A stretch of 64,000 nt of DNA, from the UHGV virus genome UHGV-1366603. One strand, 5' to 3'. Below, piece by piece: positions 1 through 19,364 of this stretch. Made by a program: the position numbers and the translations under genes. The notes under the pieces were generated by a model. The model did no database searches, was not told where the DNA came from, and worked only from the letters and a program-made list of their open reading frames with translations. How positions within the stretch are numbered: position 1 is the stretch's first letter; each line of letters opens with the position of its first letter. The stretch comes from a virus.

Positions 1-2151
1 GACGAGATGTTGGCACCTGGCGGTGAGTTATCAACCGAATCACCGCTGTGTAAGATGTGGGTGCGTAATCAGAAAACAGGAGACCGTGAAGAGAAATACA
101 CCACCGTTGATAAACTGTTTAAAACCGTAATCGATAAACAGATTATCTCCGCACCGTCATTAACCTTTTATATCCCAGAACACATCAAACGTTCCAAGCT
201 ATCAGAATTCACTGCCGCTAACGTAGCTAAACGTGCAGCGGTGAAAAAAGAGATGTTTGCTGCCGAAGCAGCAGGTAATAGAGTCTTACAGATTAACAAA
301 AAGAACGAACAGAACGCAGTCAAGACTCTGAACAACGGGATGTCAGGCGCATTCTCTTCTCCGTACACGATTATCTTTAACCAATCGTCTCACTCTGTAT
401 TAACGTCAACCTGCCGTACTGCAACCTCATTCGGTAACGCAGGTAACGAACGTTTATTGGGCGGTAATCGTCATTACGACACGCCGTCATGTATCATCGA
501 TCATTTCTTGTCCATCGGTACGTTAACCGATTGGGATAGCTTCAAGAAATGTATGGATACGTACGAACTCCATTATCCGACCGTAGAAGAAGTGATGGAC
601 GTGATTCATTATTCTGCGGACTTCTACTTTAAGAACGAAGAGGGGATGGAGTTTGTTGAGCACTATGTATCGAATGTTTCTCCGCTCACTCGCGCGGCAT
701 TTGTTTACATGGGTGATTTTTATCATCTTGCGAAGTACAACGATCAGTTCATGCGTGGTTTTATTACCGCGATGATTTCTCGTGAGATGATTGACGAAGT
801 CGAAGACTGGGATGCTGCGGAAAAAACCATTGATGGTGACATGCAGATCATCATCTCCCAGTTCCGTACTGACGTGGTGCCGATGGGTAAAGCATTCAGC
901 CACGTTAAGAAACTCGACGATAAGAAAAAGCCATTGCCGTGGGATCAGCAGGATGACTATAAGGAACTAATTCGTTCCGCTCTGTTCTTACAGAAAACCA
1001 TCGGTAAGTACGCACTTTTGATTCGCAATATCCTGACCACTAAAAACTTGCCGATTAATATCGCAAGAATGCCAGATGTGGTCCGTCGTGTAGGTGTGGT
1101 ATCTGATACTGACTCTACAATGATGACTGCACAGTGGTGGGCGGTTTGGTATACTGGTAAGCATTACGGTGAAGAAGCAACCCGTGTATCCAACGCAATG
1201 ATTTATATTGCAACGCAGCACCTGCGTCATCTGATGGCGAGTATGTCTGCGAATATCGGTGTAGCGAAAGAACGTCTGTTCTTGTACGCGATGAAGAACG
1301 AATTTAAGTTCGATTCGTTTGCATTAACGACCAAAGCAAAACACTACTTCTCACTGATTACCGGTCAGGAAGGTCAGCTGAAAAAAGATCCCGAGCTGGA
1401 AGTAAAAGGGGTGTCTTTACGTACTTCGAATATTCCACCGATTATCATGAAGGAGTTTAAGAATACCATTAAAGGACTGTGTGAGGTCGTAGCGCGTGGT
1501 GACCAGATTGAAATCATTCCGTTACTGGAAAAGGTTGCGCAGATCGAACACACCATTATGGATTCTATTCGTTCAGGTAATCCGGGTTATCTGAAAACAA
1601 CGAACATTAAGGAGCGTAGCGCTTATAACGAGAAGGACGAGAAAAACTATCACTACCATCGAATGTACAACGCTATCTTTGGTCCGAAGTTTGGTCATCT
1701 GGAAGAACCGCCTTACGACGCTGTAAAACTACCGGTGGTTTTAGAAAACAAAACCAAGATTAAAGAGTGGTTGGACAGCATCGAAGATCCGATTATCCGA
1801 AACGGTGCAACCGCGTGGTTTGAGGAGAACAATTTCCGTAAATACAAAACGTTGATTCTGCCAGAGCACTTAGTAGAGAACTACGGTATTCCTAAAGAAT
1901 TGATCGATATTGCGGACATTCGTCGCACGGCGTTCTCAACTGTAGAACCGTACTATCACATCCTTGAATGCTTAGGTGTGTTCATGATGGATAAAAACCG
2001 TATGCGTTTACTGTCGGATTTCTACGATAAAACTGCTGAAGACGATGGGCTGTATAAAGAGCTTGCGGAAGTACAGTATGTCAAGAAATCAGAAAGGGCA
2101 GGTGAGGATGATGAGGACGAAGATGATGAAGAAACATTCGATGAGGAGTAA
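1..2151 (+). CDS. hypothetical protein, 5'-partial (frame open to window start); strongly acidic C-terminal tail
   Basis: Long ORF (track 7..2151) with in-frame codons back to nt 1; ends GEDDEDEDDEETFDEE; hairpin plus T-run follows. Weak DTDS and KAKHY motifs were noted but are not enough for a polymerase call. Confidence 0.8.
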   Translation, partial: DEMLAPGGELSTESPLCKMWVRNQKTGDREEKYTTVDKLFKTVIDKQIISAPSLTFYIPEHIKRSKLSEFTAANVAKRAAVKKEMFAAEAAGNRVLQINKKNEQNAVKTLNNGMSGAFSSPYTIIFNQSSHSVLTSTCRTATSFGNAGNERLLGGNRHYDTPSCIIDHFLSIGTLTDWDSFKKCMDTYELHYPTVEEVMDVIHYSADFYFKNEEGMEFVEHYVSNVSPLTRAAFVYMGDFYHLAKYNDQFMRGFITAMISREMIDEVEDWDAAEKTIDGDMQIIISQFRTDVVPMGKAFSHVKKLDDKKKPLPWDQQDDYKELIRSALFLQKTIGKYALLIRNILTTKNLPINIARMPDVVRRVGVVSDTDSTMMTAQWWAVWYTGKHYGEEATRVSNAMIYIATQHLRHLMASMSANIGVAKERLFLYAMKNEFKFDSFALTTKAKHYFSLITGQEGQLKKDPELEVKGVSLRTSNIPPIIMKEFKNTIKGLCEVVARGDQIEIIPLLEKVAQIEHTIMDSIRSGNPGYLKTTNIKERSAYNEKDEKNYHYHRMYNAIFGPKFGHLEEPPYDAVKLPVVLENKTKIKEWLDSIEDPIIRNGATAWFEENNFRKYKTLILPEHLVENYGIPKELIDIADIRRTAFSTVEPYYHILECLGVFMMDKNRMRLLSDFYDKTAEDDGLYKELAEVQYVKKSERAGEDDEDEDDEETFDEE

Positions 2152-2157
2152 CCGTTC

Positions 2158-2180
2158 AACGTTAGCCCCTAACGTTTTGC
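2158..2180 (+). terminator. putative intrinsic terminator
   Basis: Hairpin aacgttag/ctaacgtt followed by TTTT just after the stop at 2151; T-run is short. Confidence 0.4.
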
Positions 2181-2220
2181 GATAAAATAAAGAGGTAACG
2201 TTGCACACTTGTGCAACGTT
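2181..2220 (-). terminator. putative intrinsic terminator for the minus-strand gene 2274..3335
   Basis: Perfect 10-bp inverted repeat aacgttgcac/gtgcaacgtt (2197..2220) followed on the minus-strand transcript by a U-rich tract (plus-strand gataaaataaa). Confidence 0.5.
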
Positions 2221-2273
2221 ATTACTCTATTATATGAGGATTCGAAAGAGTCCTCAGCGGGGGAGAGTAAGTC

Positions 2274-3335
2274 TTATTTTTCGAGTGCACTGTATAATGG
2301 CAGAATTAACTCGTGTCGGTAGTAGTTTCTTGCCGAACGTGTGAGTTTCTCCAGAATCTTTGCATCCTCGAAACGGGCAATCCTTACCATCAGATTAGAT
2401 TTGTATTTACCCATGCTCGCGTTGTCGTATTGCAGGCAGAACAATGCCCAATACCAGTTGACGATATTTCGATGCCAACTACCTTGAATTGTCGAACCGG
2501 GTTCTTTAAACAGAATTCGATCCAACGCCGTGGACGGTTTATGTGGGTCTTCAAAAATCTGAGGTATGTGAGCCATGACAACCGCAGGTAGAGGTTTACC
2601 AGCACGTAACGATTTTGAAATCGCTTTCGCGTGACGGATTGCTAAATCGCGTAGAGGTGGAGTCGGAATAACTCGTAACGGGTTTTCTTCTTCTATCTCT
2701 TTACCGAAGGCAATCGCACGATGAATATTTAAGAAAGCGATATCCATGTAACTGGGTAACATCCTGTAAATGATGTGTCGCTGCGCGTATACCAAGCGCG
2801 TGATGGGTTCTGGTTGTGTTCGGTAGTATTGTTCAGCAAGAACGTATTGCCACAGTAGTGCAACCAGATTTATCTCGATAATGCTGATCCCTCGGGGTTT
2901 GCCGTTACCGAGCGTCCAGTTAAGATTCGTGTATTCGTGATAAAGGTAAACCACCGGTGTGTAGTCACGGAAAGAAAGATTAGGATCGACAGGTCTCGCA
3001 ACTAACGAGATGATTTCATCCTGACCTTCTATAAAAGCGCCGTTAAAAACTTGACCATACTCCCCCACAGAAGTTAAGCGTAGAGCGTTGCCGATATCTG
3101 ACAGCTTTCGACGACAAGCCCATTCGATTTCTTCGTACGTGGGTTCACCGGCATAGCCGATAGCTGCTAAGATTTTTAGGACGAGATGACCAGAACCAAC
3201 GCTGGTTTGAATCGTTTCTAAATAGTTGCGAATGCGCTGGTTATTATTTTTTACGGCATTGACCAATTGTATAGCAGAAGGGTCTTCGTAGCGCCCCTTT
3301 ATGACTGCTTGGTTTAACTCGGCTTGACTGAACAT
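2274..3335 (-). CDS. hypothetical protein
   Basis: Track ORF 2274..3359; start moved to the second in-frame ATG (3333..3335), which has an AAGGAG Shine-Dalgarno 6 nt upstream. Lone minus-strand gene between + strand neighbours. Confidence 0.75.
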   Translation of the reverse strand: MFSQAELNQAVIKGRYEDPSAIQLVNAVKNNNQRIRNYLETIQTSVGSGHLVLKILAAIGYAGEPTYEEIEWACRRKLSDIGNALRLTSVGEYGQVFNGAFIEGQDEIISLVARPVDPNLSFRDYTPVVYLYHEYTNLNWTLGNGKPRGISIIEINLVALLWQYVLAEQYYRTQPEPITRLVYAQRHIIYRMLPSYMDIAFLNIHRAIAFGKEIEEENPLRVIPTPPLRDLAIRHAKAISKSLRAGKPLPAVVMAHIPQIFEDPHKPSTALDRILFKEPGSTIQGSWHRNIVNWYWALFCLQYDNASMGKYKSNLMVRIARFEDAKILEKLTRSARNYYRHELILPLYSALEK

Positions 3336-3541: not shown

Positions 3542-5380
3542 ATGGCTAAAGAGTTTAACGAAATTCCTAACAACGTAAATGCTGGCGCTGCTGGTGTAGA
3601 CCCGGCTCCGTCTTTTGGTGGTGTAGGTGCTGGTGCAGGCAGTGTGGATAACACCCACGCAGCAAATGCTTTCGGTGGTATGACTAAGAACATCTCCACT
3701 TTCGATAAAGCGTTCGGCTATATGTCCTACGTTTCTGCCGCTTCACATTTCACCGCGCTGATTGCGAAGATGGTTGAACGTAACCCGTACCTGAGCAAAT
3801 TCCGCTGCGGCGTTATCGACGGTGTGAATCCAGAAATGGGTTCTGCGGCATACGTTGCTGCGCCAGCAGATGAAAATGGCAGCCACTGGATGTATGGTAT
3901 CTTGTTCTTCGAACACGGTCAGTCTGTACGCTTCCGTGAAATCAACGGTAAAGAAACTTATTACACCCTGGCTTCTCTGTTTGGTCAGGCTGGTGTAATG
4001 GATTCTATCACCAAACAAATCTGCGAACAGCAGAACCTGCCGTCTGTGCAATTCATGGTAATGAACTGCATTCCAGATCTGGGTAAAACGCTGACTGAAG
4101 AGTGGGCTATCCAGCTGATGGGTCAGCTGACTCTGGGTATCTTTGGCCGTATTCCGGGCTACCTGGGTCAGCTGAAACTGACTCGCGGCGATCGCTTCGT
4201 TGCACAGGTAACTGCGGTAGACGAAGGTTCTCTGACTGACGTTAACGGCTCTGCACAACGTGCTGACCTGATGGTTCAGGTTGAACACACTCAGACCGGT
4301 AGCTTCGATACTAACCCGACGCTGATGTCCTCTGAACGTGTTCAGGGTTATCCGAGCGTTGCGGGTGTGGGTTACATCAACCTGCGTTATACTGGTCGCC
4401 GTGCACCTGAAAACGGTGTACAGGATTACAAACAGCTGCAAGCAGAAGTTGTTGTTTCTCTGATGGACTCTCAGTCTTCCGGGGCTATGGTACCAATCGA
4501 ACGTCAGCTGATTGAACTGGCTGCCTTCGCAGAAATCGCCGCTATCGGTGGCTGGCGTGAACGCTTCATGCACTCTCTCAACAAAACCGATCGTCGTTTC
4601 TCCCGCGTTATGGAATACGTAGAGTGGGGTGACAAACGTCCTGATCTGAGCAAAATCGATGGCAACCGCGAAGCTATCGAAGAGTGCCTGAACATGTTCG
4701 CCTACCCAGAAGCTGCGCTGGTTGTGAACCATCGTGCTGGTAACGGTATCGGTGGTCTCTCCACGATGTTCAGTGAAGTTTCCCAGGGTAACACTGGTAC
4801 ACTGTCTAACATCCTGACCATCCTGGACAACATGGCTCCGAAAGGTGCTACGGTGTTCACGCAGCGTTTCGCTGAAATGCTGAAAGTTAATACCATCACC
4901 TGCAACCACGTTGTTATCGCTGGCGTACCGACAGTTTCCGGTCAGTATTTCAGCAACAGCCAGAAACGTAGCTTCCAGGATCAGGACCTGGTGTCTGTAC
5001 TGAGCAAAGTTGGTGATAACCAACACGATGCCTACACTTACCTGTACGCGCAATCTTACTCACACCGTCAGTTCAACGCGACTGAACAGCGTTTGTACCT
5101 GCTGAAGCTGGCCGCTTCCCTGTTCGGCAGCAAACAGCCGGTCGTAACTGGCGAGTCCACCGATTTGGCAATCAACCCGAAATTCGCCAAAGCGCTGCTG
5201 GACTACGTGCGTGATAACTGCATCTTCCAAGTGAATGGTGTCACCGCAGTCAATAGCCTGGCTAATACGTTGTTCTTCAACAACGGCGGTGAAAACTTCA
5301 CTCTGTCTGGTAACGGCCCGAATTCCTTCGGCAGTGACTACAACATGTCATTCGCTTCCGGTAACTACAGCCCTATCTGA
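3542..5380 (+). CDS. abundant early protein; candidate chimallin (phage-nucleus shell protein) homolog, 612 aa
   Basis: Strong RBS (aaggataaataaaATG); codon usage heavily skewed to CTG/CGT/GGT/ACC; sits immediately upstream of the beta' N-terminal gene, as the shell gene does in phiKZ (gp54 then gp55, from memory); strong terminator downstream. Assignment is by synteny and size only. Confidence 0.55.
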   Translation: MAKEFNEIPNNVNAGAAGVDPAPSFGGVGAGAGSVDNTHAANAFGGMTKNISTFDKAFGYMSYVSAASHFTALIAKMVERNPYLSKFRCGVIDGVNPEMGSAAYVAAPADENGSHWMYGILFFEHGQSVRFREINGKETYYTLASLFGQAGVMDSITKQICEQQNLPSVQFMVMNCIPDLGKTLTEEWAIQLMGQLTLGIFGRIPGYLGQLKLTRGDRFVAQVTAVDEGSLTDVNGSAQRADLMVQVEHTQTGSFDTNPTLMSSERVQGYPSVAGVGYINLRYTGRRAPENGVQDYKQLQAEVVVSLMDSQSSGAMVPIERQLIELAAFAEIAAIGGWRERFMHSLNKTDRRFSRVMEYVEWGDKRPDLSKIDGNREAIEECLNMFAYPEAALVVNHRAGNGIGGLSTMFSEVSQGNTGTLSNILTILDNMAPKGATVFTQRFAEMLKVNTITCNHVVIAGVPTVSGQYFSNSQKRSFQDQDLVSVLSKVGDNQHDAYTYLYAQSYSHRQFNATEQRLYLLKLAASLFGSKQPVVTGESTDLAINPKFAKALLDYVRDNCIFQVNGVTAVNSLANTLFFNNGGENFTLSGNGPNSFGSDYNMSFASGNYSPI

Positions 5381-5467: not shown

Positions 5468-6835
5468 GTGAAAGACAGATTACAATACTTCGGTGTATCA
5501 GGGCGATTAATCAGTCACGATAAAATGTTACGTGACGCTTTCAAAGAGGCGGAGGAAAAGGGCTATAAACCGCCGATGATTATCAATGATGTTGCGAAAT
5601 ATAAAGACACCATTGAGACGTCAGAGTTGATTAACCGAATCTTACAGAACCGGATAGTCGACGAGACGCTAAATTCGGCACCTATTTGTAGTATTGATTG
5701 TGAAGCACCTATCGTTCATCGATATAATCTCGGAATGCGATGTCCTACCTGCGGCTATGTGGTGACAGAACATCGTATTGTTTCAGAAGTCTGGATTCGT
5801 GCCCCGGAGGAAATAGGCAACTTTATTAACCCACGATTCTGGTCGATGTTTAACGCTTTCTTCGGTTCTAAACTTAAGAAGTTTAACCGAAACAAAGTGA
5901 CCGTAGAACGTGGTTCTGATTTATTGATGTGGATGTTAGATCCGTGTTATAAACCTGATAAAGACGAAGGTACTCGATCCCGAATAATCAAACGCATCTT
6001 TAGCGAGTATCAAGTTCCACGCGGTATTAGGAATTTTATTGACCACCATCGAACAATATTCAATATCTTAACTTCTCCTGAAGTCTGGAAAGAAATTTAT
6101 CCACCAACGAAAAATAACCGATATGAGAGCGAACGTACTCGCTTAGAGTGGAAAAAGTTCTTCGAAGAACAATCGCACACTTTCTTTCCGGTTCATCTTC
6201 CAATCATTTCACCCAAACTGATCGTTACGGAGGAACGACGTCAGGGTATCTTTATCGATCCTGTTTATACCAGTGCAATAGACGCGGTTAAGAACATCGC
6301 GTTACTTTATACCAATGCACGACGCATCCCAACCCATTTCATTATTAGTCGCGCATTAAAAGCAAATCGTCAGTTAGCGTACTTCTATATTGACCATCGT
6401 CAGGAGGTAATGGAAGGTAAACCTGGGTTCTATCGTGCCAAGTTAGGTTCAACACACATCCCGTGGGGTGGTCGTGTAACAATCTCTCCAATTTCAGAAC
6501 CGCACGACGCTATGAAGGTTATTGCACCTTGGCGTTGGTTAGTGACGTTAGAATCTGTAGCTATTGAAAACAAACTCGGTCGACGGAACTTCACACCACG
6601 GCAGTGTGAACGTGTTATTGCATTTGCATCAATGCAGTACGTACCGTTGGTTCATGAAATTATCAACGAACTTATTAAGGAGTCTCGTGGCGGTTACGGC
6701 CTGATGATATCAGCGCTACGAAACCCGACGCTTGTACAGTTGTCTATTCAGACATTATTTATCTCAGCTGTTAACCCTGATGTTACACAGTGCTCGTTAC
6801 GTATCTCCGATCGCGTCATCAAAGCTCCGAATGCT
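5468..6835 (+). CDS. multisubunit RNA polymerase beta' subunit, N-terminal fragment, exon 1
   Basis: GTG start with GAGGA RBS. Zn-finger-like CxxC...CPTC; GFYRAKLG..WGGRVTISP matches beta' [38 protein letters not shown] matches NRAPTLHRLGIQAF; exon ends ...RVIKAPNA (last nt T at 6835). The track ORF runs on to 6967 only because the intron is in frame until a stop. Confidence 0.85.
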
Positions 6836-7185
6836 AAAATTTGGCCCACTAGACGGGAAACCTCTAGTGCGTATCCCCCGAATTGCTGGGAACTCCTAAA
6901 GCTTACGATCCCGACAGGGTGGCGAAAGCCAGAAACAATTCGTAAGATAGCCTATGCTAACCAATAATGCTAAGGGTTGTGATAATGGATAACCAGCAGC
7001 GATGAAAATCGTTCAACGACTATCGAAAGGGTAAAACCGAGTAGAGTAGCTGCTTAGTTTAGCGGCGAAGTGGGGGAGACCTACGGGTAGCAATACCTAC
7101 GGTTATGATATAGTCTGTGCCCATGTGAAAACATGGGAGGGTGTCATTGCACACCTGCTCCAAAAGGAATGGAGTGGACAAACAG
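6836..7185 (+). ncRNA. group I self-splicing intron, 350 nt, no ORF, interrupting the beta' gene inside NADFDGD
   Basis: 5' exon ends in U (6835) and the intron ends in G (7185). P-like aattgctgg (6881..6889), Q-like ccagcagc (6993..7000), R-like gttcaacgactat (7011..7023) and S-like gatatagtctg (7107..7117) with GACUA/UAGUC P7 pairing. Flanking hairpins cactaga/tctagtg (6847..6869) and cccatg/catggg (7120..7137). Splicing restores NA|DFDGDQ. Confidence 0.75.
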
Positions 7186-7425
7186 GATTTCGATGGTGAC
7201 CAATTACAGGTTAGACGTTTAGTCGATACCACGGAGATGGATTTAGCGCTGGCTTATCGTCCAGATAACGGATTTATGTCCAGCACAAACGTAGACGAAG
7301 TGTCTAGCAGCATGGTGTTACACAATGAGCTTATCAGCATGGAAAACCGTTTCTTACGCGATACCGAAGAAGATCTGGAGGCGGGTATCGCCATCGACTC
7401 AGAATTAATCTTAATGGCGGGGTAG
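7186..7425 (+). CDS. multisubunit RNA polymerase beta' subunit, N-terminal fragment, exon 2 (begins DFDGDQLQV...)
   Basis: In frame with track ORF 7141..7425; DFDGDQ...RPDNGFMSS matches E. coli beta' DFDGDQMAVH...SPANGEPII. The GTG at 7141 is taken to be inside the intron, not a real start. Confidence 0.85.
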   Translation, partial: DFDGDQLQVRRLVDTTEMDLALAYRPDNGFMSSTNVDEVSSSMVLHNELISMENRFLRDTEEDLEAGIAIDSELILMAG

Positions 7426-8474: not shown

Positions 8475-9137
8475 ATGAGTCAAGAACCAGGAAAATTTAA
8501 TGGGGTTCCTATTAATGAACTTTCTGGCCGCGCTAAATTCGAATACGATAAACTTCTGGAAATGGAGAGCGTACTCCAGCAAGGCCAGAATGTGTGCAGT
8601 GTTTTTACAGAATCGATGTTCCGTCGCCAGGGCTTACCTTTGTTGTCGGGGATGTTAGACGGTACGTTTAACGAAGACACCTGGGTGGATTACGTCGGCA
8701 GCGCGTTTGTTCCGTTACAGATTGTTTCGGATGCTGACCATTCTAAACTGTTATTCACTATCCCACCGCTGCTGAATACAGGTCGTTCTCTTCAACATGT
8801 TGAAGGTCAACCCTCTTTAACGGAAGAGACGGAAGCTATTCGCCAGACGGCTGATATCATCTCCGAAGTGGGTGAGCAGCAGTTGCACCAGATGATCGAT
8901 TACACGTTAGACGGTATCGAGAGACTGTCGTACGAAGAAAATGCACTGCGGGCAAAAAGAGTCATCGATCTCTTAAACTGGATTTTCCGTCGTTACCAAG
9001 TTAACGGTCAACTTCCTTATCCAGAAGGGTTGGAAGAACTTTGCAATCAGATTGAAGGTAAAAGTAAACCTGCTCAGGTTGTAGAGAAGAAACCTGAACC
9101 CGTTAAAACAAGACGTTTCGATGATTACGATTACTAA
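8475..9137 (+). CDS. hypothetical protein
   Basis: RBS gagga before ATG; overlaps the next gene. Confidence 0.8.
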   Translation: MSQEPGKFNGVPINELSGRAKFEYDKLLEMESVLQQGQNVCSVFTESMFRRQGLPLLSGMLDGTFNEDTWVDYVGSAFVPLQIVSDADHSKLLFTIPPLLNTGRSLQHVEGQPSLTEETEAIRQTADIISEVGEQQLHQMIDYTLDGIERLSYEENALRAKRVIDLLNWIFRRYQVNGQLPYPEGLEELCNQIEGKSKPAQVVEKKPEPVKTRRFDDYDY

Positions 9138-17123: not shown

Positions 17124-19364
17124 ATGAAAACACCAGTTGAGCTATTGAGCAGCGTCGCTGACCGTGAAGTCAATATCGCACAGGTATCAGGTGCAAGGGC
17201 ATCGATGGTAGGTAACCATATGAAGTCCTCGGTGCCGATTGACCATCCTGAACCGTCACCACACTTTACGGGCGCAGATACCAATTACCACGATTTTCTG
17301 TTTAACGATATTGTGGAAGACAGTGGGAGCATCTGTCATTACACAACTAAGGAAGGTAGACAACGTCGTGCAACGTTTACCCGTTATGGTCGTCGTGGGG
17401 ATTCCCGTGCGCTGGAACATGCGATATTCTTCCGCCGTGCAGAATGCCGTATTCCGGGCAAAACAATGATAGACGTTATCGAGATTAACTTTTATACTAA
17501 TCACGATAACGTGTTCTCTTCCGAGAAATGGGAATCACCAAAACTGCGTAGTTTGTTACGTGGTGAAACCGACCAGTTAGAAAAGGATGAAATCCTGACG
17601 ACGATGCCGTGCATGGTGGATGGTGAATTCGCAGACAGTGTAGTGCTGCCAACAGTTACCATTTCACACCCAGACATTATCGAGGATTCCTACACGATTT
17701 CCGAAGAAGCGGCACAGAAGCTTCACGGGTATGGGTTGAAGGTTATCGAGAAAACATTGCGTGAAGATGAATTCTTACTGGATACCTACGGTTATAACGA
17801 TCCCGAGGGAAATCGTGTACCGCGCTATTTTCCAGACGTGGGTGAAGCAATTCGTGACGACGGCTTAGTTATTGCTTCTCGTCGTTTCGATGACCTGTAC
17901 GCAGCGATTGATGCAACCTTAGGGGAAACCCAACACGTTTCTCCGTTCTTCGATAACTGTGATTACGTGGATGCCGATCCGATACACTATAAAGCGCGTT
18001 TGGAAAACAACCACGAACTGATGGAACGTAGCGGAACTCGCATTGTTGATATTCAGGTTTGGCGTGATGAAACGTCATGCGGTAATGGAACGAATAACAT
18101 TAACTGTACTGAAGAGAACAAACGTGAGCTTGACAAATACGCATTGGCGTTAAAGGACTACTACAATGCGATTGTTCGCTTCTATTTCTCCGTGTCGAGA
18201 GATAAAAACATTATCTGGTCTCCCAAAGCGTGTGTGTTGTTGGAGAAAGCTTTTGCATCCGAAACGTACGAAGTCTACGCAGAGTTTCGTGAAGAAATTC
18301 GCGGAGTGATTGAAGACGCAATTCGTCGCGGCGAATACGGTAAAGAGAACGTAAGTCAACAGATTATCTCTAAACTGACTTCGCCTGTTCAGCGTGGATT
18401 AAGCGATCCCATCAATACGTATACAATTCGTATCGCGGTACGTTATCCGATCCCGGTGACGGTGTCTTCTAAGATTACCGACCGTTCGGGTACGAAAGGG
18501 ATTGTGGGTCGTGTACTGCCAGTTGAACAGATGCCAATTAACGAGTTCGGCGAACGTGTCCACGTACTACGTTCAATGAACGCCGTAATTCGTCGTTCTA
18601 CTTACGCCGCGCTGTTCCACATGTATTGGTCAGCAGCATCTGAACAGCTGAAGATGCGCCTTAAACCAATGCTGGATGAAGGACGTATTGGTGAGTGTTG
18701 GGAAATCCTGATGGACTACCTCTCACGCTATAATCCAGAATGGGCGAACACGTTACAGGCTACGCATCCTACGGAGGATTTGCAGCGAGAACTCTTTAAA
18801 GAGATTTACGATTTCACTATCCGCATTTACTTACCTCACGAACTTGATGACACTCCGGTGGAAATCAGTGAACGTTTAGGTGAGTTTAAACCCCGTAAGT
18901 CTAAACTGCTTATTACCAATTACGACGGTAAACAGGAATGGACAAAAGACGAGTTTTACGTGGGTGGTGTAGAAACATTACGGCTTGATAAAACGGGACG
19001 TGAATTCTCAAGTATTTCGTCGATGTACCTGAACTACCTGGGCACGATTGATGCGTCTAACCAAGGACGTGGTTCGTATCCGGTAAACTATAAAACGCTA
19101 AAATGGGCTGGTCCTTCGGAAGAACGACTATTAGCGGGTTATGGTCCAGGTAACTACGAAGAGGTTCACGATAGGGCAAATAACCCTGCTGTACATCGTG
19201 AGATTTTAGTAGGGCTGTACCGATCTCAAACCCCTTCCAATCCGGGCGTACTGGTAGACCGGAATAAGCTCCCATTAGGAGATTCGCAGATTGACAGAAT
19301 GATGAAAAACATTCATAGCTGCGAAGGGTTTGAATTGGTGAAAATGAAAAGGGGCGAAGAATAA
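17124..19364 (+). CDS. multisubunit RNA polymerase beta subunit, C-terminal portion
   Basis: TDRSGTKGIVGRVLPVEQMPINEFGERVHVLRSMNAVIRRSTY aligns with E. coli beta [49 protein letters not shown]; aaaggag RBS. Confidence 0.7.
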   Translation: MKTPVELLSSVADREVNIAQVSGARASMVGNHMKSSVPIDHPEPSPHFTGADTNYHDFLFNDIVEDSGSICHYTTKEGRQRRATFTRYGRRGDSRALEHAIFFRRAECRIPGKTMIDVIEINFYTNHDNVFSSEKWESPKLRSLLRGETDQLEKDEILTTMPCMVDGEFADSVVLPTVTISHPDIIEDSYTISEEAAQKLHGYGLKVIEKTLREDEFLLDTYGYNDPEGNRVPRYFPDVGEAIRDDGLVIASRRFDDLYAAIDATLGETQHVSPFFDNCDYVDADPIHYKARLENNHELMERSGTRIVDIQVWRDETSCGNGTNNINCTEENKRELDKYALALKDYYNAIVRFYFSVSRDKNIIWSPKACVLLEKAFASETYEVYAEFREEIRGVIEDAIRRGEYGKENVSQQIISKLTSPVQRGLSDPINTYTIRIAVRYPIPVTVSSKITDRSGTKGIVGRVLPVEQMPINEFGERVHVLRSMNAVIRRSTYAALFHMYWSAASEQLKMRLKPMLDEGRIGECWEILMDYLSRYNPEWANTLQATHPTEDLQRELFKEIYDFTIRIYLPHELDDTPVEISERLGEFKPRKSKLLITNYDGKQEWTKDEFYVGGVETLRLDKTGREFSSISSMYLNYLGTIDASNQGRGSYPVNYKTLKWAGPSEERLLAGYGPGNYEEVHDRANNPAVHREILVGLYRSQTPSNPGVLVDRNKLPLGDSQIDRMMKNIHSCEGFELVKMKRGEE

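Follow-up and report, generated by a model that had tools for sequence, protein, structure and literature searches.

An ORF-less group I intron predicted to interrupt the NADFDGD motif of a jumbo-phage RNA polymerase beta' gene

The viral genome UHGV-1366603, of which a stretch of 64,000 nucleotides (nt) was analyzed here as the window, is a distant relative (approximately 72% nucleotide identity) of the SPN3US/phiEaH2 jumbo-phage group and was absent from the collection of phage isolates that was searched. In this window, a gene for an RNA polymerase beta'-type subunit breaks off inside its catalytic motif. The open reading frame (ORF) at 5468..6967 reads ...RISDRVIKAPNA up to position 6835, after which it runs in unrelated sequence to a stop codon at 6965-6967, and the expected continuation, GAT TTC GAT GGT GAC CAA (DFDGDQ), begins at 7186 in a different frame, inside the ORF at 7141..7425. 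The question raised by this locus is whether the 350 nt in between are an intron that is removed from the transcript of a single gene or whether the subunit is made in two pieces, and, if an intron is present, how it came to be there. An earlier note made from the sequence alone had proposed an ORF-less group I intron, and the coordinates of the segment (6836-7185) and of both ORFs were exactly as it gave them when compared with the sequence and the ORF list. The evidence described below makes it very probable that 6836..7185 on the plus strand is a group I intron that splices at 6835|7186.

Identity, boundaries and fold of the intron

A covariance-model search bore out the assignment to group I. 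The Rfam model RF00028 matched positions 6825..7137 on the plus strand with 61 bits (E = 5e-13; gathering cut-off, 50 bits), and the whole model (1-253) was covered. A scan of the complete 64 kb with the threshold relaxed to E <= 1 gave no other Rfam match, and a search of the same 64 kb detected no transfer RNA. In the Rfam alignment, the P4 5' strand AAUUGCUGG and the P4 3' strand CCAGCAGC correspond to the P-like and Q-like elements that had been picked out beforehand, and the J6/7 plus P7 5' strand GUUCAACGACUA and the P7 3' strand GAUAUAGUCU correspond to the R-like and S-like elements. The match ends at the P9 hairpin (7137), and the remaining 48 nt consist of P9.1, P9.2, the P9.0 strand and the terminal G. 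Because P7.1 and P7.2 are located between P7 and P3', the intron belongs to subgroup IA (phage IA type). The first base of the intron is A6836 and the last is G7185, and exon 1 terminates with gcU at 6835; the U ending the 5' exon and the terminal G are thus both present as proposed. No ORF able to encode an endonuclease appeared in the ORF list for 6836-7185. The ORFs touching the intron are the exon 1 read-through, a spurious GTG ORF at 7141 and a 57-amino-acid antisense ORF. In addition, the folding of the intron beat all of 100 dinucleotide shuffles (z = -4.24).

Joining of the exons gives ...RVIKAPNA|DFDGDQLQV... in a protein of 535 amino acids, in which NADFDGD is restored and the intron falls between the A and D codons; the peptide across the exon 1/exon 2 junction in the predicted spliced product is APNADFDGDQLQVR. 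This product matched PHROG 2987 ('RNA polymerase beta subunit') with an E value of 2e-161. It was aligned with the phiKZ beta' N-terminal subunit gp55 (PDB 7ogp chain A) over residues 68-505 (E = 7.8e-37) with no gap across the junction, the query ...IKAPNADFDGDQLQV being paired with ...LKAPNADFDGDQLNL of gp55, which has LKAPNADFDGDQL at the junction in that structure. A weak match to Pfam RNA_pol_Rpb1_2 at residues 418-465 also spanned the junction. SPN3US_0023 and the phiEaH2 ortholog were 66-68% identical to the spliced protein, and the zinc-binding cysteines C74, C78, C92 and C95 were invariant in the alignment with them. The zinc-binding cysteines named earlier as a beta' hallmark are therefore real, although their spacing is CxxxC...CxxC and not CxxC..CxxC. 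Homology, cysteines and the Mg-binding motif NADFDGDQ, present once the exons are joined, agree with the features of the gp55 family. Judged from its sequence, the host gene encodes the N-terminal half of beta' in the non-virion RNA polymerase (nvRNAP) and is orthologous to phiKZ gp55 and SPN3US_0023.

The position of the junction was examined with uninterrupted alleles. The genes of SPN3US and phiEaH2 showed no indel at the junction relative to the spliced protein (...RVIKMANG|DFDGDQ). Furthermore, L007, a metagenomic phage in IMG/VR, was 98.5% identical to the window in both flanks (2.7 kb on the upstream side, 2.3 kb on the downstream side) and was without exactly the 350 nt. The alignment with L007 breaks at window positions 6835 | 7186-7188, and L007 encodes the 165-amino-acid spliced query as a single piece with 100% identity. 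The gene is uninterrupted at the same point in a further phage, L008, and L018 is an intron-containing sibling with 98.6% identity to the window. Because the near-identical allele L007 differs by precisely the 350-nt segment, the boundaries of the intron are fixed to the base.

The RNA fold was examined in an alignment of six introns inserted at the same site, namely those of the window, L018, L021, Lh1B, JN03 and, after removal of its ORF, L023, whose sources are described in the next section. RNAalifold found P1-P6 (P5 with a branched extension), P7.2, P8, P9, P9.1 and P9.2, and the P7 pseudoknot GACUA/UAGUC was added by hand. At the paired positions, 99.1% of the cells were paired, compared with 33-46% in slid controls, and changes on both sides of a pair (compensatory changes) occurred at 35 of the 90 pairs, compared with 2-5 in the slid controls. 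The observed covariation score was reached by none of 500 shuffles. These results indicate that the RNA fold is under selection. P3, P5, P8 and all the peripheral helices covary, with compensatory changes at 5/7 pairs of the P5a helix, 5/6 pairs of P7.2 and 6/7 pairs of P9. P9.2 is replaced wholesale in Lh1B, and P7.1, which was read by eye, is UCGC/GCGA in Lh1B versus GAGC/GCUC in L023.

The two ends of the intron are held in this fold as well. The 5' splice site is located directly after U6835, a base in wobble pairing with G6843; U•G was found in all six homologs, and the P1 pairs flanking it both covary (CG/GC and AU/UA). P1 is composed of GCU+AA/UUGGC in the window, GGU+UC/GAGCC in Lh1B and GCU+UC/GAGGC in L023, and the guide sequence changes along with the codon in the exon. 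At the 3' end, the P9.0 pairing of UGU (7116-7118) with ACA (7182-7184) was predicted by RNAalifold in 6/6 sequences, and all six homologs terminate in ...ACAA(A/G)CAG| ahead of GA(T/C)TTCGA. The equivalent of the P10 candidate is a perfect 6-bp helix, UUUCGA/UCGAAA, in Lh1B. The RNA-family match, a fold under selection, exact boundaries and a restored conserved protein are thereby established. The positions of these features and of the neighboring genes are collected in Table 1.

Table 1. Exons, structural elements of the intron and neighboring genes in the window
Feature	Position	Strand	Description
Exon 1	5468..6835	+	456 codons, GTG start, ends ...RVIKAPNA; nvRNAP beta' N-terminal-half gene
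P1	6833..6845	+	G6833-C6834-U6835 + A6836 (A6837) with (U6841) U6842-G6843-G6844-C6845
P2	6847..6869	+	GAAA-loop hairpin; 9 pairs, 5 compensatory
P3 5' strand	6874..6879	+	UCCCCC, partner 7072-7077 GGGGGA; 7 pairs, 3 compensatory
P4-P5 domain	6884..6998	+	P4 6884-6889/6993-6998; P5 6894-6896/6987-6989; branched P5 extension 6902-6980
P6 hairpin	6999..7012	+	Invariant pairs
P7 5' strand	7018..7022	+	GACUA; pseudoknot partner 7111-7115 UAGUC; invariant in 6/6; within Rfam R/S consensus
P7.1 and P7.2	7023..7066	+	P7.1 7023-7040; P7.2 7049-7054/7061-7066; peripheral, between P7 and P3'
P3 3' strand	7072..7077	+	GGGGGA
P8 hairpin	7078..7104	+	GCAA loop
P7 3' strand and P9.0 5' strand	7111..7118	+	UAGUC 7111-7115, then U7116-G7117-U7118
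P9, P9.1 and P9.2 hairpins	7120..7175	+	P9 7120-7137, P9.1 7139-7156, P9.2 7157-7175
P9.0 3' strand and omega-G	7182..7185	+	A7182-C7183-A7184, terminal G7185; 3' splice site after 7185
P10 candidate	7186..7190	+	Exon-2 GAUUU with A6837-U6841 (AAAUU); putative, from sequence reading, unscored
Exon 2	7186..7425	+	79 codons + stop, begins DFDGDQLQV...; contiguous with exon 1 in L007, L008, SPN3US and phiEaH2
DNA polymerase match	7..2151		PHROG 2927
612-amino-acid ORF	3542..5380	+	Directly upstream of the polymerase gene, at the position of phiKZ gp54
436-amino-acid antisense ORF	3743..5053	-	Overlaps the 612-amino-acid ORF
SbcD-like nuclease match	9121..10269		PHROG 100
Second RNA polymerase beta-type subunit	17124..19364		PHROG 3295; Pfam RNA_pol_Rpb2_6

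In the Rfam scan of the window, no RNA-family match was found in the DNA polymerase, SbcD-like nuclease and second beta-type subunit genes. The 612-amino-acid ORF was considered as a counterpart of phiKZ gp54, but no similarity was detected: it had no PDB phmmer or Pfam match, BLASTP against gp54 gave no significant result and its PHROG family (8316) is of unknown function.

Same-site relatives and probable movement of the intron

Among 215 phage records containing this gene segment, the majority were uninterrupted. In six Seoulvirus isolates, namely Escherichia phages vB_EcoM_Lh1B and EC001 and Salmonella phages JN03, SPLA3, SPLA5c and 1252, the gene is split at this site by a gap of 356 nt, for which the Rfam group I scores were 69.4 bits (Lh1B) and 68.6 bits (JN03). 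The Seoulvirus introns resemble that of the window in the identical insertion site, the lack of an ORF and the same helices, whereas they differ in length (356 nt), in sequence (approximately 71% identity) and in the lengths of P9.2 and P6. Their exon codon is GGU (Gly, NGDFDGD), in contrast to GCU (Ala) in the window, with a compensating change in the guide sequence. The earlier expectation that annotation would report two genes was borne out in GenBank: for Lh1B (L001 3254-5205) and EC001 the intron-split gene is listed as two coding sequences, 'beta subunit 1' and 'beta subunit 2', and for JN03 (L004 1559-3350) the coding sequence is truncated and exon 2 is left unannotated. The true product in the window would be one 535-amino-acid catalytic subunit, and several GenBank Seoulvirus records (two 'subunits' or truncated) need correcting. 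A literature search, which missed most subscription journals, found no publication on the intron of the SPN3US group or Seoulvirus (Lh1B, EC001).

A longer intron of 1412 nt is inserted at the same site (AAC GCT|TCGACA...) in L023 (1884..3295; IMGVR_UViG_3300011862_000001, a 237-kb contig). The ORF in its P1 loop matches HNH_3 and NUMOD1 and is 28% identical to phiKZ gp56 (E = 1e-19). Introns were also considered in 20 more distant IMG/VR relatives in which the protein match ended near the motif; no group I match was obtained in any of them, and the truncation reflects divergence. The core GTTCAACGACTA...GATATAGTCTG was found in at least 120 stretches of IMG/VR. Many phage introns thus share the R/S core, which is therefore not diagnostic of this lineage. 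Three copies of the core (L100-L102) are located on one 247-kb contig, IMGVR_UViG_3300031555_002387, and a 67%-identical intron core (L103 1960-2210, on a 207-kb contig) has flanks without similarity to the gp55-type gene.

The introns of the window and L021 were identical at 342 of 350 positions (97.7%), compared with 74.9% and 77.0% identity in the flanks; the L021/L008 lineage is approximately 75% identical to the window. In addition, there are two sets of intron-plus and intron-minus phages with 97-98.5% flank identity, the window and L018 versus L007, and L021 versus L008. Sporadic, precise plus/minus alleles and discordance between intron and host, both of which are features of homing introns, are thus found here, and the intron's own endonuclease, which is a third such feature, is absent from the window copy and present in L023. 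Based on the discordance in identity between intron and flanks and on the two plus/minus pairs, the data point to a recent horizontal movement of an intron lacking its own endonuclease gene. The transfer would most plausibly have occurred by trans-homing or by recombination during co-infection.

It is possible, though in our judgment doubtful, that the intron splices and is nevertheless an immobile, vertically inherited passenger, in which case an old gain would have been followed by sporadic precise losses, and the identity of the introns would be due to purifying selection or to an artefact of assembly. Several observations speak for this possibility. The intron contains no endonuclease ORF, and tblastn of the L023 HNH protein and phiKZ gp56 against the 64-kb window gave nothing below E 0.07. 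When IMG/VR was scanned for enzymes closely related to that of L023, the only contig recovered was that of L023 itself. No co-conversion tract is resolvable beyond approximately 20-30 nt from the junction, and the exon identity between the window and L021 returns to approximately 75% within approximately 30-60 nt of it. Furthermore, L007, L018 and L021 were derived from one metagenome assembly (3300045988), and the assembler may have homogenised the intron to some extent. However, selection hardly explains 97.7% identity in an intron when the flanks, which are essential coding sequence, are 75-77% identical, and the loops and peripheral helices are identical between the window and L021 too, though they vary freely in Lh1B and L023. 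Moreover, both alleles are present in each of two independent lineages, and an endonuclease-bearing version occupies the same site in L023. Recent movement of the intron is thus the reading that we prefer.

The empty site of L007 shows an anomaly. The comparison of the window with L007 revealed 78 differences in approximately 5.1 kb. Nine of them, all synonymous and in the third codon position, are located at -15, -12, -9, -6, -3, +3, +6, +12 and +18, counted from the insertion point (L007 2740-2780 versus window 6820-6835 and 7186-7204). At the background rate, approximately 0.5 differences are expected in that 34-nt span, and the Poisson estimate is of the order of 1e-9, uncorrected for scanning. 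With L021 and L008 as outgroups, four of the nine changes (-15, -12, +3 and +6) were unique to L007. Co-conversion of a short patch may account for this cluster, as may selection at the empty site for escape from an endonuclease. A more far-reaching proposal, which we put forward as a tentative and rather unlikely one, is that the ORF-less intron is still spreading among phages of approximately 75% identity by means of HNH enzymes from co-infecting relatives and that the changes in L007 are selected resistance. If so, the part of the nvRNAP beta' gene that encodes NADFDGDQ would be a contested homing hot-spot, and the cluster would be a footprint, in a natural population, of the intron-mediated interference competition that has been shown experimentally for PhiPA3 and phiKZ. 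Across jumbo-phage clades, at least three distinct insertion points are located within 18 nt. The public data offer a natural test case, since they comprise near-isogenic plus and minus phages of the same community, a nearly identical intron in a host of approximately 75% identity and a related intron that contains an endonuclease gene. They bear on the questions of whether introns without an ORF are still mobile and whether resistance evolves at empty sites, both of which are relevant to intron-mediated competition between co-infecting phages.

Proposed splicing pathway and accounts without splicing

The structure suggests how splicing would proceed. The gene would be transcribed as a single pre-mRNA. 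Pairing of the internal guide sequence UUGGC (6841-6845) with the last bases of exon 1 would create P1 and place U6835•G6843 where cleavage occurs. P7 of group I introns contains the guanosine-binding site. An exogenous guanosine bound there would attack after U6835, P9.0 and P10 would dock G7185 and exon 2, and ligation of the exons would yield ...RVIKAPNA|DFDGDQLQV... with the Mg-binding NADFDGD motif restored. Catalysis itself is inferred for 6836..7185. The element belongs to a mobile lineage, of which the window copy is an ORF-less derivative and in which L023 keeps an HNH/NUMOD endonuclease in the P1 loop.

Some points speak against a functional intron of this kind. P4, P6 and P7 are invariant in the six sequences and are uninformative for covariation, and the six aligned introns represent just three distinct lineages (the window type, the Lh1B type and L023). 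The P1 loop in the window has 3 nt only, and the P10 candidate of the window would be a weak A-U helix of 4-5 bp. In addition, a long-read transcriptome detected no spliced reads for the predicted introns of phiKZ under its conditions (PMC10914365).

If splicing did not occur, the segment could be a decayed remnant, and the subunit would be made as two polypeptides, from 5468..6967 and 7141..7425, which assemble non-covalently. There is a precedent in that the beta and beta' subunits of jumbo phages are naturally divided among several polypeptides (PMC7598289), and two coding sequences were called for Lh1B by the GenBank annotators. Furthermore, a GTG at 7141 opens the ORF in the frame of exon 2 and is preceded by GGGAGG; this GGGAGG, however, abuts the GTG with zero spacer. 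Such a split would cut NADFDGD and would add 44 and 15 junk residues to the two products, and the read-through residues showed no protein conservation between the window and Lh1B, whereas the gene is uninterrupted in closely related phages. P1, P9.0 and all the peripheral helices stay paired through 35 compensatory changes. A non-splicing remnant is disfavored, because pairing kept in this way makes sense only for an RNA that has to fold and be spliced, and we consider this account very improbable. The idea that the intron ends where the Rfam match does, on G7137, with exon 2 starting at 7138 in the frame of 7186 (...KAPNA-RVSLHTCSKRNGVDKQ-DFDGD), deserves hardly any credence, since it would put 16 extra residues inside NADFDGD that are absent from L007, L008, SPN3US, phiEaH2 and phiKZ gp55, 7139-7175 forms two hairpins with compensatory changes whose length and sequence differ in Lh1B with the pairing kept, and P9.0 joins 7116-7118 to 7182-7184, beyond 7137. 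A splicing group I intron bounded by 6835|7186 is accordingly the account that we retain, and it leaves the understanding of how group I introns work unchanged.

Comparison with known phage introns

The closest known case is phiKZ gene 55, for which a group I intron with the HNH endonuclease gp56 was described by Mesyanzhinov et al. (2002), as cited in PMC11512511 and PMC10914365. In the phiKZ record, gene 55 is interrupted as PHIKZ055, the HNH ORF PHIKZ056 and PHIKZ056.1, with an Rfam core score of 75.6 bits, and the mature protein in PDB 7ogp corresponds to PHIKZ055+PHIKZ056.1. The two introns share the host gene, the catalytic motif, the RNA family, P4 and the R and S core strings. In addition, gp56 is homologous to the endonuclease of L023, and the ORF directly follows the 5' splice site (P1 loop) in both. 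The phiKZ junctions are cct aaU|ggacaa...aatacG|gct gat ttt (L005 ~1770-3140), which places the phiKZ site at N|ADFDGD (aaU|GCU), 3 nt upstream of the window site NA|DFDGD (gcU|GAU). The phiKZ intron contains an ORF of 334 amino acids, whereas the window intron contains none; outside the core, no blastn alignment between the two was obtained at E<1e-5, and the host phages are of different genera.

The intron of PhiPA3 with the HNH endonuclease gp210, in the virion RNA polymerase (vRNAP) beta subunit gene, mediates competition with phiKZ (Birkholz et al. 2024, PMC11620839) and is the paradigm for such elements in the competition of co-infecting jumbo phages (PMC11620839). Like the window intron, it is a group I intron in a multisubunit RNA polymerase gene of a jumbo phage, beside conserved catalytic aspartates. 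Unlike the window intron, it is located in the beta subunit of the virion enzyme, at another site, and has an active endonuclease, and no competition phenotype is inferable from it for the ORF-less copy. Introns are also marked in vRNAP genes of the phiKZ group in Figure 7 of the SPN3US paper.

The intron of Pseudomonas phage PS119XW (Pawinskivirus; L006 ~1783-2144) is located in the same gene as that of the window, is ORF-less and belongs to the same RNA family (75.7 bits); it is inserted after NADFDGD|Q, unlike the window intron. In phiKZ-like phages of the kmuB type, a second intron, likewise ORF-less and of the same RNA family, interrupts this gene at HRN|PTLQR. Of the two introns of kmuB itself (L208 ~1660-1964 and ~2073-2569), one contains an HNH ORF in truncated form. 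The gp55-family gene has thus been invaded at no fewer than four points of its active-site region, HRN|PTL, PN|ADFDGD, NA|DFDGD and DFDGD|Q. The T4-type introns (td, nrdB and sunY; subgroup IA2) are likewise phage-borne, have P7.1/P7.2 and interrupt conserved codons of essential genes of nucleic-acid metabolism, and some of them are ORF-less. They differ from the window intron in their host genes, and the likeness is one of architecture. Introns of this kind, in this gene and even in this motif, were therefore already known, and what is new is the lineage, the exact site, the ORF-less state and the population evidence. The window adds the SPN3US-like lineage and the insertion point NA|DFDGD to the introns that target active-site codons of jumbo-phage RNA polymerases.

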